A stretch of 46,219 nucleotides of DNA from Escherichia phage Rtp, in sequence record NC_007603.1, one strand, 5' to 3'. The notes under the pieces were generated by a model that saw only the letters and a program-made list of their open reading frames with translations, was not told the DNA's origin and searched no databases. The position numbers and the translations under genes are program-made. Numbering within the stretch: the first letter of the stretch is position 1; each line of letters begins with the position of its first letter. This document shows positions 6,365-35,281 of this stretch, in pieces.

Positions 6365-6387
6365 CAATGAAATAACGAGGTGATGAT

Positions 6388-6864
6388 ATGAATTGGCATG
6401 ATATTTTTGATTATGATGGATGTAATTTATACAGAAGGGATTCTGGAAAAAAGGCTGGAACAAAAGCGGGCCCTAGAGGTTACATTCAGTGCAGAGTTGG
6501 TGGTGGACTACCTAAGGTTTATGCTCACAGGATTATATGGGAGATGCACAATGACAAGATACCTAACAGCATGGTTGTTGACCACATTAACCACATATAC
6601 GACGACAATAGAATTGAAAACCTAAGGTTAGTAACAGTTAAGGAAAATTCTAGCAACATTAAGAGATCAAAGAGAAATACAAGTGGCATACAAGGAGTTA
6701 GGAGAAGGAGTGATAACGGAAATTGGTACGCGGACTTAAGAGTTGATGGAAAGCTAAGGCAAATGCCAATGCGACATTGCTTTGAAGACGCAGCAGCCGA
6801 TAGGATATATCTTGAAGTGTACCACGGGTTTCATCCAAATCATGGAGCAATAGTAAATGAGTGA
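6388..6864 (+). CDS. HNH endonuclease with AP2 domain (homing endonuclease-like)
   Basis: HRIIWEMHNDKIPNSMVVDHINHIYDDNRIENLRLV motif; paralog of 21464..21979; sits between terS and terL. Confidence 0.8.
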   Translation: MNWHDIFDYDGCNLYRRDSGKKAGTKAGPRGYIQCRVGGGLPKVYAHRIIWEMHNDKIPNSMVVDHINHIYDDNRIENLRLVTVKENSSNIKRSKRNTSGIQGVRRRSDNGNWYADLRVDGKLRQMPMRHCFEDAAADRIYLEVYHGFHPNHGAIVNE

Positions 6865-21441: not shown

Positions 21442-21463
21442 CTCTTAAATTGGGGGTTAAAAT

Positions 21464-21979
21464 ATGAATTGGCATGATTACTTTAGATATGAAGACGGCA
21501 AGTTATACTGGATTAGCTTTCCAAACCCAGAGCAGACAAGGAGCGTAAAGATAGGAGATGTTGCTGGATACAAACACCCTGACAACAAGGGTTACATTAG
21601 GGTTCAAGTTATGGGTAAGATGCTAAGGGTCCATCGCGTGATATGGGAAATGCATAACGGAAAAATACCAGAAGGCATGGAGATTGACCACATAAATGGG
21701 ATTAGATCAGACAACAGAATTGAAAACCTAAGAATTGTTAATGGTCTTGAGAACATGAAAAATAAGGGGATTTATAAAAACAACAAAACTGGATTTGTTG
21801 GGGTTGAGAAAATTAAAGCAAACGGAAAGTACAGGGCAAGCATAAGAGTTAATAAAAAACTTATTTTTCTAGGTGAGTATATTTCAATTGAAGATGCCAT
21901 TGACGCTAGAAAGAAAGCTGAATGTGAATACCTTTTCCATAAGAATCACGGAGTTAGAAATGCTTACACCAAAAGTTAA
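21464..21979 (+). CDS. HNH endonuclease with AP2 domain (homing endonuclease-like), paralog of 6388..6864
   Basis: HRVIWEMHNGKIPEGMEIDHINGIRSDNRIENLRIV motif; inserted between L-like and K-like tail genes. Confidence 0.8.
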   Translation: MNWHDYFRYEDGKLYWISFPNPEQTRSVKIGDVAGYKHPDNKGYIRVQVMGKMLRVHRVIWEMHNGKIPEGMEIDHINGIRSDNRIENLRIVNGLENMKNKGIYKNNKTGFVGVEKIKANGKYRASIRVNKKLIFLGEYISIEDAIDARKKAECEYLFHKNHGVRNAYTKS

Positions 21980-26751: not shown

Positions 26752-27686
26752 TTAATACATATCAGGTAGGTAAGGTAGAGGTATGCCAAGTGTAACGTCT
26801 GGTCTATTTCCAATTCCATATCTAACTATCCTTGTGCCCGTGCCGCTTCTTACGTTACCACCAGTCATTACCACGCCTTTGTTTCTCAACTCCTTGTATG
26901 CAGGTATTGCCCTTGTGTTAAACCCACACCTAAGTATTGGGAAGTATGAGTTTCCTATGCTCTGGTTTGAGCTTGTCAAAGTCACGAACCCAGAAACGAC
27001 AAGAGGCCTCGTTAATGTTGAAAAAGTGCACTGATTGTTCGAGTTGAATATGTTTATTCCAGGCCCTGGGGTTGGCGCAACTTGCTGGAATATTATTAGA
27101 TCAAGAGTTACGCTACCAGGGGTATTCCCAGTATCTTTTGTATTTATATTCGTGCAATATAGAGTTCTGTTACCATCAAACTCAACTGAGACACCTGAGT
27201 TATTCCACTTCCCAAAAGGTATTCCAGCTATTGGCATTGTGTAGCTGTTTGTGAATGATACGGTTCCTGAAAATTTGCAAGTAAGAAGCCTATCCCTTGT
27301 TGTTATAGAGGCAAAATCAGTACTGTCAGCAACGTATATACCTTGCCCAGTTGACGCTCTCAATACCTCTACTACAGTTCCCGAAAATTGCGTAATACGG
27401 TCATTATAAGCATTCTCTCCACCAATAGTTATCGTTCCCTGAGTATTGGTTGCTGAAAATCCATTTATATAATAAATCTCAACCCCCCTATCAAGTTCAA
27501 AACTGTAAGCGCCATTTCTTGGTAGTAAGAATTTTGATGAACCATTGCTACCACTTATTGGGAATGTCTTTGTAAATCCTCCGCTAGAAACGTTGAAGTT
27601 ACCAGCAAAAGACAACCCCCTCATCCCTGAGGTTATCGTCATTGGTTTTCGACCATCATTTAGATCAATGTAGATGCCTTGAGCCA

Positions 27687-27687
<1 letters not shown>
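26752..27687 (-). CDS. putative receptor-binding protein (tail tip), G/S/T/N-rich
   Basis: 311 aa; AAGGAG SD; TAATG overlap with the upstream lipoprotein gene; composition typical of fibre or RBP proteins; located after the J-like gene as expected for T1-like RBP loci (from memory). Confidence 0.45.
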
Positions 27688-28000
<313 letters not shown>

Positions 28001-28087
28001 TCGTATACACGTAACCGATGTAACTCGATGTATACAATCTCATCCGCGGAAAATGATATACGCGCTGTTACGCTAATTTACGCATTG

Positions 28088-28170
28088 GTTACATTAAAAT
28101 ATCTATATATATCAACCTTTTACTCTTATTATTATTATTATATATATTACTGTGTATATCATGTAACTAC
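28088..28170. repeat. about 80-bp AT-rich repeat, copy B
   Basis: TTACATTAAAATATCTATATATATCAACC...TTATTATTATTATATATATTACTGTGTATATCATGTA; pairs with 215-296. Confidence 0.7.
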
Positions 28171-30394: not shown

Positions 30395-30826
<432 letters not shown>

Positions 30827-30829
30827 AGA

Positions 30830-30855
30830 TAAGGCCCCTTTCGGGGCCTTTTTTA
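30830..30855 (+). terminator. rho-independent terminator
   Basis: AGGCCCC-TTTC-GGGGCCT plus T6. Confidence 0.65.
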
Positions 30856-33738
30856 TTAAATCAATTTAACAGATCTTAACTCATTACCAGAAGTTGTAGA
30901 TATTGTTGTTGAACTAACTAACGTCCCAGACAATGCAAACGAAATAGCTCCAGTCGATGAGGATCTAGTAGCAAACCTTTGAGGTGAATCGCTTATAACA
31001 CTTATCTTATTTGCTGTAAAAGTATTAGAGCCAGAAAAACCAGTAGTTACAACCAAATCCTGATTGAGTCTAAATCCAAATCCAACAGTAACAGAGGTTG
31101 ACTCGCTCACAGGAATGTTAAGCCCATTTAGCCGCACACCTGAGATATCAAAGAAATCACAAGAAGAAAGAAGCGCCCTTCTTGAAATGCCTGTTGTTAT
31201 TGGTAGCGTACTCTGAGACTGTCCATTGAAGTTACATACAAATCTTGTGTTAATGAAACTAATATCATGATTAACAGAGCCATCAACCGGAGAGGCCGTA
31301 TCAGATGTTGACTTAACAATACCGCCAACAAATTTTATTGCCACAGGTCCATTTGGGTCTGAACCATAGTAAGCTCTAAGCCTTTCAACATTACAATTAA
31401 CCATGTAATAGCTCCCCCTCTGGTTTGTCTCAAATATAGGGTATCTCGAGCTTCCGACAGGTGAAGAGAGATCATATATAGAAACGTTAGGGTTATGAAG
31501 ACTGTTAGCACCCATGAAAACGATATTATTTGATAAAATCCCCTTTATACTTATGTTGGTAGTAAACCTTCCAGTCAATGAGCTTTCAGAATTTGTCATG
31601 TCCGAGAATGGCCCCTTAAACCTTGAAAAATCAATAGTAAGCCCCAAGCTAGCAGATGATGGGAAAGCCGACATGTTAACATCTGATATTGAAACGTCAG
31701 AAGGGAAAAGCAGCGCACCATCTCTACTTGAGTAGAATAAATTACCAGGATGAGAACTGTAGCTTCCTGACTTGAAGTTAAGGCCCTTAATCCTAACTGA
31801 GTTAAACAGAGTGCTCTTTATTGGTGAGCCAGCTACAGGTCCATTTCCTTCATAAGAAATTCCATTTATCAAACCCGTCCCGGTCAGGCCAGTACTTCTT
31901 GTGCCTGTAAAAGTAATGTTATCCATGTAAAGGTTTCCGTCAAAGAAACCTCCAGCGTCTGCCCTTGTTGTTATGATATTCCCATTCGTATATCTAGACG
32001 CATTAAATGCACTATCCCTTATATGCAAATCGCCAAGACCAGTAACAACAACACCACGGGCACCGATATTGCAGTTTTCAATCTTAAGGTAGTTATGGAA
32101 AGGCATGTGAAAGTCAATTCTACTTAGATCACAATTTTCAAAAGTTACGTTTGCGCAGTTGTTACTACCATTTGCGCCCCATCCTTTACCGTTAACCCTT
32201 GCGTTCATAATCCTTACGTTCATTGATTCACCTATTGATAAGGCGTATGAGTAAAGCTCACCAGAAGAATCTCTTGCGTCTGCAACAGACTCGGCAAAAA
32301 GACCATCAACTGTGATATCATATGAGTTAGCTATTGCCAACCTTGTATCGCTAAACCCTTGTGTTATCGGCTTGTTAATAAAAGAAATATCTTTTATTGA
32401 CAACCTTGTAGAATTATTAACATAAACTATCTGATACCGTGTCGAAAGACTTTCATCTATAGTTAAACCCTTGATTTCCTGAGTTGTCTTGTTTATCTTC
32501 AAGGCTCTAACTGATGTAACATTATTTCCAAGATCATACTTCAGTGAGTTCTCCAGATAACCCCTATTGTAAACCCTATTGAGTTCAATTCTTTTCTGAA
32601 CAGAATCCCTATATGTGTACATGTCCTGATTTGTATAAAAAACAATAAAACAACCATCAAGGTCACGATTTTCAGATATAGAGTCGAACAAATTACTTCC
32701 AGCAGTTCTTGATTCATTAGACATGGAGTTAAAAGATGAAACAACAGATGACGAAGCGTCATAAGTTGTAGGTTCCCCGTTGGTTATAGTTATCTGCCCG
32801 GTCCATGAGGATGATGGTTTTATAACAGAGCCTGTAAAATCAGCACTCAATGAACCAATATCAATATAATCGGAACCAGAAACAAGAAAAACACCATCAT
32901 TCTGCTTTATCTTTAGATTTTTGGATTTTGCGTAGTTTATCGCTCGATTTATACCTGAAATATCATTAGTAATACCATCTCCAACACACCCAAAATCATA
33001 GAAACTAACATAACCTTTAGATCCTAGCTCAGACCACGAAGAATCACCAATCCCACCAGAAGAATATGGTGTCGAGTTTTCCGGGACTGTCTTAGGTAGA
33101 TCTCCCATCCATACGTATGACTTTGGCTTACCGGAGTCAAGCCATATCATTTGTTGATTTCTTGACTCTATTACACCTCCGGACTCAAATGATGAAATTA
33201 AGGCACCAGATAATGATTCCGCATAACCCCGTGCAGCTTGTTCTGATGACATTGCTAATCCAGCACTCGCTGCAGCAGAAGCCATATCACCTGCTACCTG
33301 GGCAGCATTCTGCGCAACCTGTGATGACATGTTTACAACATCGCCATACTGATTGTTAACCTGTGTTACTTTAGATTCAAAATCATTAAAGTCAAAGTTG
33401 TTAAATACATCAACTGCATCAGCAACCTCAGTTTCACGTGACTGATAGTAACGAAGAGTCTCAGCAACATCTTGAGCTAATCCCTGAACGGTAATCCCAT
33501 CATGAGCAAGAATAGCGTAACCAGTTCCAGCAGGAACAGTTTCAGAATTAGGGTTATAAACATTAATCTGCGTATCGCTGATGATCTCAGAGATGGTGTA
33601 AATTTTTACTGGCTCAGTTTTAAATACAATGGTGGCACCTACGCGAATCAGTGTAAGCGGTGCTTTCCATGTTGTCCCGACACCAGTCACCTCGCCGTTT
33701 GCAGCTAATGATGCGGATCCCAAGTCATAAATTGCCAT
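30856..33738 (-). CDS. lateral tail fiber / tailspike with right-handed beta-helix (pectate-lyase-like) domain
   Basis: About 960 aa; FYDFGCVGDGITNDISGINRAINYA resembles the pectate-lyase/tailspike N-cap motif; ORF track GTG 33768 trimmed to ATG 33738. Confidence 0.7.
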   Translation of the reverse strand: MAIYDLGSASLAANGEVTGVGTTWKAPLTLIRVGATIVFKTEPVKIYTISEIISDTQINVYNPNSETVPAGTGYAILAHDGITVQGLAQDVAETLRYYQSRETEVADAVDVFNNFDFNDFESKVTQVNNQYGDVVNMSSQVAQNAAQVAGDMASAAASAGLAMSSEQAARGYAESLSGALISSFESGGVIESRNQQMIWLDSGKPKSYVWMGDLPKTVPENSTPYSSGGIGDSSWSELGSKGYVSFYDFGCVGDGITNDISGINRAINYAKSKNLKIKQNDGVFLVSGSDYIDIGSLSADFTGSVIKPSSSWTGQITITNGEPTTYDASSSVVSSFNSMSNESRTAGSNLFDSISENRDLDGCFIVFYTNQDMYTYRDSVQKRIELNRVYNRGYLENSLKYDLGNNVTSVRALKINKTTQEIKGLTIDESLSTRYQIVYVNNSTRLSIKDISFINKPITQGFSDTRLAIANSYDITVDGLFAESVADARDSSGELYSYALSIGESMNVRIMNARVNGKGWGANGSNNCANVTFENCDLSRIDFHMPFHNYLKIENCNIGARGVVVTGLGDLHIRDSAFNASRYTNGNIITTRADAGGFFDGNLYMDNITFTGTRSTGLTGTGLINGISYEGNGPVAGSPIKSTLFNSVRIKGLNFKSGSYSSHPGNLFYSSRDGALLFPSDVSISDVNMSAFPSSASLGLTIDFSRFKGPFSDMTNSESSLTGRFTTNISIKGILSNNIVFMGANSLHNPNVSIYDLSSPVGSSRYPIFETNQRGSYYMVNCNVERLRAYYGSDPNGPVAIKFVGGIVKSTSDTASPVDGSVNHDISFINTRFVCNFNGQSQSTLPITTGISRRALLSSCDFFDISGVRLNGLNIPVSESTSVTVGFGFRLNQDLVVTTGFSGSNTFTANKISVISDSPQRFATRSSSTGAISFALSGTLVSSTTISTTSGNELRSVKLI

Positions 33739-33803
33739 TGTGTAAAGTCTCCATTTGTAAAATAGCACGAATTGCTAAGTTGGATTGTAGCATCTTTCAG
33801 GCA

Positions 33804-33828
33804 TAAAAAAACCTCCCGAGGGAGGTTA
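33804..33828 (-). terminator. rho-independent terminator (minus strand)
   Basis: Minus-strand CCTCCC-TCG-GGGAGG plus T7, overlapping the primase stop. Confidence 0.6.
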
Positions 33829-34807: not shown

Positions 34808-35281
34808 TTACTCTTTAGCTTTTCGTGCTGCCTCATTAGCGGCCTTGATCTTTCTCCATGAACGACACTCTGGTTTGGTTGCTAACTCGGACTCAGTAAC
34901 CACACGCAGCATGTGACGCTTCTTGCACCGTAATGTCAGCGGCTTTCCGTTGCCGTCGAATTGCAGGTCTGGTCGGCAGAATGTAGCGCGAAAACCTTCT
35001 CCATTTCGCTTGTAGTAGTTGTGAGAAAGCTGAGCGCCGCGAGCAGATATCATTCCACGCTTAAACCATTCCTCTACAGCCTGTGGTGTTACCTTTAACT
35101 GCTTTGCGATATTCGCCTTTGTGCCGAAGAAATCAAGAACAATCTCCAGTCGCGCGCGCAACCCTGCCCTTACTTCATCTTTCAAAACGTAGTAACCTGA
35201 AGGTCGTTTTCGTTGTTTTTTGTCTTCAGTGCGGACAGTTCCGTTATTACCGTTGATTGTTCTCTTGTCGACTGTATTCAT
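34808..35281 (-). CDS. putative HTH DNA-binding protein
   Basis: IAKQLKVTPQAVEEWFKRG resembles a Cro/C1-type helix-turn-helix; basic N-terminus. Confidence 0.5.
   Translation of the reverse strand: MNTVDKRTINGNNGTVRTEDKKQRKRPSGYYVLKDEVRAGLRARLEIVLDFFGTKANIAKQLKVTPQAVEEWFKRGMISARGAQLSHNYYKRNGEGFRATFCRPDLQFDGNGKPLTLRCKKRHMLRVVTESELATKPECRSWRKIKAANEAARKAKE

Follow-up and report, generated by a model that had tools for sequence, protein, structure and literature searches.

What is a long gene encoded on the minus strand doing among the recombination and replication genes of Escherichia phage Rtp, and what part would its product play in infection? The window examined here, the complete genome of this T1-like coliphage (Drexlerviridae, Rtpvirus), is the whole stretch of 46,219 nucleotides in sequence record NC_007603.1, and the gene in question lies at positions 30856-33738. 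An earlier note, made from the sequence alone, had described its product as a beta-helix tailspike that degrades a host polysaccharide. The explanation that we consider probable is that the gene encodes a modular lateral tailspike of the lyase type, situated at the standard lateral tail fibre locus of the Drexlerviridae. The predicted fold, the homology to a characterized capsule lyase and the conservation of its catalytic residues all point to a tailspike that is most likely a Tyr/His/Arg lyase of the type represented by K64-ORF41, a stubby spike that would cut an acidic sugar on the bacterial surface.

Identity of the gene

The leftward open reading frame (ORF) of about 960 codons that had been placed between the genes for a single-stranded DNA-binding protein (SSB) and a primase is indeed present on the minus strand, with the flanks as described. 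It is uninterrupted, ends in a stop codon at 30856-30858, and has two candidate starts, a GTG at 33768 (970 amino acids) and an ATG at 33738 (960 amino acids). The ATG is the better start, as it is preceded by a GGAG Shine-Dalgarno sequence 10 nt upstream and agrees with the annotated starts of the Rtp protein and its counterpart in the related phage IME253; the GTG was set aside for the same reasons, and the coordinates 30856-33738 are thus correct. The ORF product is 100% identical to CAJ42254.1 (YP_398994.1, UniProt Q333D4), 'tail fiber protein [Escherichia phage Rtp]', its best PHROG match is 16586 'tail fiber protein' (1312 bits), and the databases hold 1344 homologues of it; this is therefore a real gene and not a chance reading frame. 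Since Rtp45 is Q333D9 and the fibre is Q333D4, the order of the UniProt accessions indicates that the gene is probably rtp50. Within the phage collection, vB_EcoS-IME253 (Drexlerviridae; Braunvirinae; Rtpvirus) comes closest, with 97.5% DNA identity over 5 kb, and its counterpart of the Rtp gene, gp70, is annotated as a tail fibre.

Predicted fold and putative catalytic residues

The AlphaFold2 (AF2) model of the full protein, built on an alignment of 111 sequences, has a predicted local distance difference test (pLDDT) score of 84.5 overall and mostly above 90 for residues 185-960, where it displays the regular short-strand pattern of a beta-helix. Its top Foldseek match is 8x8m_A (E 5.8e-41, template modelling (TM) score 0.86 on the target, root-mean-square deviation (rmsd) 3.4 Å), and structure prediction thus bears out the beta-helix proposed previously; the next matches are the K1 capsule lyase 7w1c, AP22 gp54 (4y9v) and LKA1 gp49 (4ru4). 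A phmmer search of Protein Data Bank (PDB) sequences also recovers 8X8M (E 3.1e-51), aligned with residues 242-935 of the Rtp fibre, and the C-terminal domain that follows the helix is still alignable to it as far as residue 935.

8X8M is the structure of K64-ORF41, a lyase that degrades the K64 capsule of Klebsiella by beta-elimination and whose catalytic residues Tyr528, His574 and Arg628 are shared with the K1 lyase; K64-ORF41, K1-ORF34 and gp54 have been grouped as lyases with common catalytic residues (review PMC11652154). The PDB chain has 1037 amino acids and the native protein 1017, which corresponds to a 20-residue tag and a shift of +20 in the chain numbering, and Y548, H594 and R648 of the chain align with Y498, H544 and R592 of Rtp. 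Y498 and H544 are the sole invariant columns of the 111-sequence alignment, and R592 is retained in all but two of its sequences (109/111). The proposal that the protein is a polysaccharide-degrading enzyme is supported by this homology to a characterized capsule lyase with a conserved catalytic triad.

K64-ORF41 is encoded by the Klebsiella podophage SH-KP152410, whereas Rtp is an E. coli siphophage, and the two proteins are approximately 21-25% identical; their enzymatic regions nevertheless have the same beta-helix and the same positions of the three catalytic residues. A second, weaker match covers residues 118-242 of Rtp, including the Tail_spike_N region described below, while the anchors are different, being of the KP32-like type in K64-ORF41 and of the Drexlerviridae type in Rtp. 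The residues of the K64-ORF41 substrate groove are not conserved in Rtp, and the specificity of the Rtp protein is therefore almost certainly not for K64. K1-ORF34 (7W1C), AP22 gp54 (4Y9V) and LKA1 gp49 (4RU4) superpose poorly on Rtp over their whole length (TM 0.28-0.48, rmsd 12-14 Å), and phmmer finds no sequence similarity of the Rtp fibre to any of these three at E<=1.

The pectate-lyase-like signature that had been quoted as evidence of the fold stands only in part. The motif, GCVGDGITNDISGINRAINYA, is present at residues 250-270 and is a genuine cap motif, of the form GxxGDGxTdD...I..AI, that is common to the helix starts of Rtp and of PF12708 (Pect-lyase_RHGA_epim). Taken in isolation this segment scores 18.7 bits against the PF12708 cut-off of 27 (E 0.0016), matching positions 3-34 of the 213 in the profile; the remaining 180 positions are unmatched in the Rtp fibre, and a Pfam search with the full protein gives no PF12708 match at E<=1. 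Membership of the pectate lyase family was rejected, the similarity being below threshold and confined to the cap motif, and the protein would appear to work like a polysaccharide lyase without belonging to PF12708.

The alternative that survives best, although we think it unlikely, is a glycoside hydrolase activity of the beta-helix, which would act on a neutral O-antigen as an endoglycosidase in the manner of the P22, HK620 and Sf6 tailspikes, with the Tyr, His and Arg residues having substrate-binding or structural roles. The lateral fibres of the Drexlerviridae are thought to be O-antigen-directed (PMC8594841), a homologue in an E. coli prophage occupies a P22-type tailspike slot beside gtrABC, and the hydrolase tailspikes of Sf6 (4urr) and P22 and the phi92 colanidase (6e0v) do appear in the Foldseek list. 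However, they are found far down that list, with TM scores of 0.15-0.25 and rmsd values above 13 Å, whereas the only strong neighbour in both structure and sequence is a characterized lyase and the three structures ranked next to it include the K1 lyase and gp54 of the same lyase group; moreover, across the 111 sequences nothing in the family is conserved more strongly than the lyase triad. It is very unlikely that the protein is instead a non-catalytic adhesin, binding surface glycans reversibly and using the beta-helix as no more than a rigid scaffold. Many O-antigen-targeting fibres do lack enzymatic activity (BASEL 2025), but the Rtp fibre keeps all three catalytic residues of its characterized homologue, none of the 17 residues that differ between Rtp and IME253 belongs to the triad, and strict conservation of the triad at 20-30% identity argues for selection on catalysis.

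Modular organization of the protein

The region that precedes the beta-helix was poorly predicted in the first AF2 run, where the alignment was shallow and pLDDT was below 50 for residues 1-90. A second run with residues 1-245 and 78 N-terminal homologues reached a pLDDT of 84.8 and gave a beta domain (residues 1-80), helices and a further beta domain (residues 181-240). Within residues 1-127, about 80 columns are at least 90% conserved among the 78 homologues. The phmmer search of PDB sequences aligns residues 1-171 with the N-terminal ends of two depolymerases of Drexlerviridae, Depo32 and DpK2 (E ~6e-35), and the N-terminal region is 60-90% identical in homologues whose C-termini are unrelated; the virion-anchor-like character ascribed earlier to this region is supported. 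Residues 1-80, for which Foldseek finds no significant fold match among solved structures, are presumed to be the virion attachment module, in view of their conservation and of what has been described for related fibres (BASEL 2021, PMC8594841). The two helices that follow (residues 84-113 and 117-179; pLDDT up to 97) are likely to form a trimeric coiled-coil stalk, and by analogy with its homologues the spike as a whole would assemble as a trimer.

The only domain that Pfam finds in the full protein is PF18668 (Tail_spike_N) at residues 182-239, with 48 bits against a cut-off of 25. Foldseek matches this region to 4oj5, 6nw9 and 4qnl at rmsd 1.2-2.4 Å and 37-40% identity (1.2 Å and 37% for 4oj5), the beta domain of residues ~181-240 superposing on CBA120 TSP1 and TSP3 and on G7C gp63.1.

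These parts differ sharply in their distribution. The lateral fibres of other Drexlerviridae, such as those of the BASEL phages Bas01-Bas13, share with the Rtp fibre its locus, its orientation and, at up to ~90% identity, its N-terminal ~150 residues, whereas their C-terminal modules are nearly all unrelated to that of Rtp and include PF12708, PF13229, sialidase-like PF13088, SGNH and others. Many PHROG tail fibre families other than 16586 likewise match only the first ~170-240 residues. Depo32 (7VYV) and DpK2 (7LZJ), both K2 depolymerases, are homologous to Rtp over the N-terminal 170 residues and have the same plan of anchor, stalk and beta-helix, but their catalytic domains, in which Glu/Asp pairs lie in inter-chain clefts, are those of hydrolases and bear no meaningful similarity to the C-terminus of Rtp (Foldseek TM 0.12). 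The ends of BLAST alignments with 120 homologues fall into two groups, one of 32 proteins (85-91% identity) at residues ~140-160 and one of ~65 proteins at ~220-300, which mark two recombination junctions. The G+C content is 43.8% in the 5' part of the gene and 38.1% in the 3' part (30856-33018, the C-terminal two-thirds), against 44.3% for the genome, as would be expected if the enzymatic module had been acquired horizontally.

In a collection of 50,697 phage records the C-terminal module is closely shared only by IME253, followed at 47% by tailspikes from Shigella phage MK-13 and Enterobacter phage fGh-Ecl02; Klebsiella phages account for 165 of the 190 records that match. When 1.84 billion cluster representatives were searched exhaustively, the enzymatic module proved to have 534 relatives among them, 84 at E values below 1e-30. 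IME253 gp70 is ~97-98% identical to the Rtp fibre over its full length and 98% identical in the C-terminal region; it differs from the Rtp protein by 17 substitutions and a 7-residue duplication, none of which touches the triad. The duplication, a tandem SLSGALI at residue 174 (~33217), lies at the end of the helical stalk and is absent from Rtp; the 17 substitutions are scattered, and several of them are grouped within the final 150 residues.

Related sequences are also present in E. coli prophages, seven of 5,426 genomes carrying a segment with ~67% DNA identity to the catalytic core of Rtp. In the O38-type strain ECNB21-M121 (NZ_CP083585.1; 7951-10481 in the retrieved stretch) it is part of a P22-like prophage remnant beside gtrABC, which consists of a head-binding-domain pseudogene and a 537-amino-acid protein whose gene has ~67% DNA identity to the core. 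The lyase-like module thus also circulates as an E. coli prophage tailspike. An attempt to guess the substrate from these prophage homologues was dropped, as the O-antigen cluster of the one strain inspected gave no decisive hint.

Location at the lateral tail fibre locus

To the left of the fibre gene, on the plus strand, are genes for a PDDEXK exonuclease, an Erf recombinase and a 143-amino-acid protein ending in DSDIPF, whose counterparts in relatives are annotated as SSB; the minus-strand genes to the right encode a zinc-ribbon primase and a Cro-like regulator (34808-35281), and a plus-strand helicase gene comes next. The Rtp gene map thus has the fibre gene convergent with the SSB gene and between the recombination/SSB and the primase/helicase genes. 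The recombination and primase/helicase genes that flank the lateral tail fibre locus of the Drexlerviridae are known to be conserved and syntenic (BASEL 2021, PMC8594841, S1C Fig), and only the extreme 5' end is common to lateral fibre genes across the family (BASEL 2021, PMC8594841). We re-checked the synteny in five relatives, IME253, JulesPiccard, CEB_EC3a (Guelphvirus), e4/1c (Rogunavirus) and CJ19 (Nouzillyvirus), and found the same order and orientation, SSB being encoded on the plus strand and the fibre, the primase and the regulator on the minus strand. The Rtp gene is therefore at the standard lateral tail fibre locus of the Drexlerviridae. The earlier observation of an opposite-strand gene inside the replication module is correct as to position but not as a peculiarity, and an unusual location was rejected, since the arrangement is conserved in every relative inspected and is the normal published one for the family (PMC8594841).

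While the gene does lie among recombination and replication genes on the strand opposite to its left-hand neighbours, the idea that it is a gene of the replication module or a moron whose product has been wrongly labelled a fibre and is foreign to the virion can be dismissed as hardly credible, given the homology of its N-terminus to Depo32 and DpK2 (both tail fibre depolymerases, from Drexlerviridae that infect Klebsiella), the Tail_spike_N domain, the assignment of all 18 PHROG matches with a category to tail proteins, and the recognition of this locus as that of the lateral tail fibre (PMC8594841).

Two features of the neighbouring SSB gene may be recorded. A CAG/CAA tract at 30725-30802 encodes a run of ~25 residues, nearly all Gln, before the acidic DSDIPF tail, and Pfam finds no SSB domain in the 143-amino-acid protein.

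Proposed role in infection

We propose that a trimer is probably held at the tail tip by residues 1-179, the N-terminal beta domain together with the helical stalk, that the Tail_spike_N domain (182-239) would act as an adaptor, and that the beta-helix (~245-960) would be a horizontally exchangeable enzymatic module of the K64-ORF41/K1-ORF34 capsule lyase group. Tyr498, His544 and Arg592 would cut the glycosidic bond beside a uronic acid by beta-elimination, allowing the virion to bind to an acidic capsule, exopolysaccharide or O-antigen and to work its way through it, after which a separate tip protein, Rtp44, would meet the outer membrane in the second step of entry. Rtp44 has been proposed to bind LptD, with Rtp45 as its cognate exclusion lipoprotein. 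Colanic acid is an unlikely substrate: its glucuronic acid sits in the side chain, and a lyase would for this reason not depolymerise the backbone.

Several points weigh against a lyase acting on an acidic glycan. Many O-antigens have no uronic acids, Rtp has reportedly (in its 2006 description) been propagated on rough laboratory strains, IME253 was grown on a rough host in which there is no obvious target for the enzyme, and the AF2 predictions are of the monomer. The distant E. coli prophage homologue is in a P22-like tailspike slot next to gtrABC in an O38-type strain, and no uronic-acid-specific genes were found in the O-antigen cluster of that O38-type E. coli. The catalytic residues of K64-ORF41 used here were taken from a review table (PMC11652154), and the expected target of Drexlerviridae lateral fibres is the O-antigen, which they would bind (BASEL 2021, PMC8594841).

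The claim that the spike sets primary host range can be upheld at most conditionally. IME253, with its 98% identical C-terminal region, infects rough, non-encapsulated BL21(DE3), for which FepA and TonB are strictly required (PMC6499177), and the spike therefore does not decide entry on rough hosts. The fibre is best seen as a conditional first-step device, which would matter on hosts with the cognate acidic glycan and be irrelevant on rough strains, and it should be dispensable on hosts such as K-12 and BL21 that lack such a glycan.

Downstream of the gpJ homologue, Rtp and IME253 have different receptor-binding loci. In Rtp the locus contains a gene for a 314-amino-acid DUF6453 protein (26752-27696, minus strand), probably Rtp44, the proposed LptD binder, and in the FepA user IME253 it contains two plus-strand ORFs (1199-2364 in the retrieved stretch). 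The terminal-receptor module has thus been swapped between these phages, and the lateral fibre has not.

Candidate regulatory elements and feature coordinates

The features of the gene and its surroundings are listed in Table 1. On the minus strand, the order before the ATG is the primase stop codon, a hairpin with a run of seven T residues (33827-33810), TGcTACAAT (33792-33784), the inverted repeat TTAGCAATTCGTGCTAT (33778-33762) and GGAG. The stem and T-run of the hairpin are invariant in the five other Drexlerviridae aligned; the hairpin, the TG and TA..A.T positions and the half-sites of the repeat are thus invariant in all six. TGcTACAAT would be an extended -10 promoter of the fibre gene. 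At the other end of the gene, the intergenic site of CEB_EC3a that is equivalent to the hairpin between the SSB and fibre genes is annotated as a terminator on both strands.

Table 1. Coordinates of the Rtp lateral fibre gene, its predicted domains and putative catalytic residues, and candidate regulatory elements
Feature	Coordinates	Strand	Basis
Complete coding sequence of the lateral tail fibre/tailspike (960 amino acids plus stop)	30856..33738	minus	ORF list; identity to YP_398994.1/Q333D4; PHROG 16586
Residues 1-80, small all-beta domain, presumed virion attachment	33499..33738	minus	Most columns at least 90% conserved in 78 homologues; six strands in AF2
Residues 84-179, two long alpha-helices (84-113, 117-179), likely trimeric coiled-coil stalk	33202..33489	minus	AF2
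Residues 182-239, Tail_spike_N domain (PF18668; CBA120 TSP1/G7C gp66 type)	33022..33195	minus	Pfam; Foldseek
Residues ~245-840, predicted right-handed parallel beta-helix body with catalytic site	31219..33006	minus	AF2, Foldseek, phmmer; limits read from DSSP pattern
Residues 855-960, predicted C-terminal beta-sandwich-like domain	30859..31176	minus	AF2: longer antiparallel strands after helix 846-854; pLDDT 78-93
Tyr498 (codon TAC), aligned to catalytic Tyr528 of K64-ORF41	32245..32247	minus	Tyr in 111/111 homologues
His544 (codon CAC), aligned to catalytic His574 of K64-ORF41	32107..32109	minus	His in 111/111 homologues
Arg592 (codon AGG), aligned to catalytic Arg628 of K64-ORF41	31963..31965	minus	Arg in 109/111 homologues
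GC-rich hairpin between convergent SSB and fibre genes, likely bidirectional terminator	30831..30850		Terminator scan; minus-strand T-run weak
Hairpin and T7 run right after primase stop codon, terminator-like, upstream of fibre gene	33810..33827	minus	Terminator scan
TGcTACAAT, candidate extended -10 promoter of fibre gene	33784..33792	minus	TG, TA, A and T positions invariant in six phages
Inverted repeat, operator-like, over predicted transcription start	33762..33778	minus	One of 17 copies; half-sites invariant in relatives

The operator-like repeat, ATAGCACNAATTGCTAA, has 17 copies in the genome where 0.81 would be expected, for example at 2359, 3077, 4027, 8425, 29628, 37795 and 44950. 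Approximately 14 of these are co-oriented with the downstream gene and have a TATAGT-like -10 element 20-21 nt further on, their centres being near -42, as for an activator. The fibre gene is the sole place where the repeat lies downstream of a -10-like element and over the predicted start, as for a repressor. Ten such repeats were reportedly attributed in 2006 to a regulator, Rtp52.

Significance and further observations

What is new here is the assignment of a K64-ORF41-type lyase with a conserved triad, together with the module junctions; the gene and its locus had already been annotated or published, as had the mosaic nature of the latter, and the picture of genome organization in the Drexlerviridae is unchanged. 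The 2006 label of 'tail fiber protein' gives way to a specific, if predicted, enzymatic assignment of modest practical value. T1-like phages are common fermentation contaminants and candidates for host-range engineering, and the module boundaries at residues ~150 and ~240 could guide the swapping of tailspikes among them. The lyase assignment predicts that both Rtp and IME253 have in nature a host whose capsule or O-antigen is acidic, and an intact lyase for a capsule or other acidic glycan in a phage known only from rough laboratory hosts would, if true, imply an encapsulated natural host that has gone unrecognized.

Rtp takes its name from its rosette-like tail tip, which is reported to be a rosette of four leaves. 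A wider reading, which is possible but doubtful, would combine a rosette made of these stubby lyase spikes in place of the thin flexible fibres of T1, an inverted wiring of their gene into the single-operator regulatory network of the phage, and an unrecognized encapsulated natural host; one regulator, probably Rtp52, might then time the expression of a structural gene stranded in the replication module.

Elsewhere in the window, a direct repeat of 161 nt with 76% identity is found at 132-292, at the left end of the genome, and at 28005-28165, just upstream of the recombination genes. Paralogous stretches with 72-75% identity lie at 6379-6590 and 21455-21696, at the starts of the ORFs 6388-6864 and 21464-21979, which probably encode the two HNH endonucleases that have been reported from Rtp.

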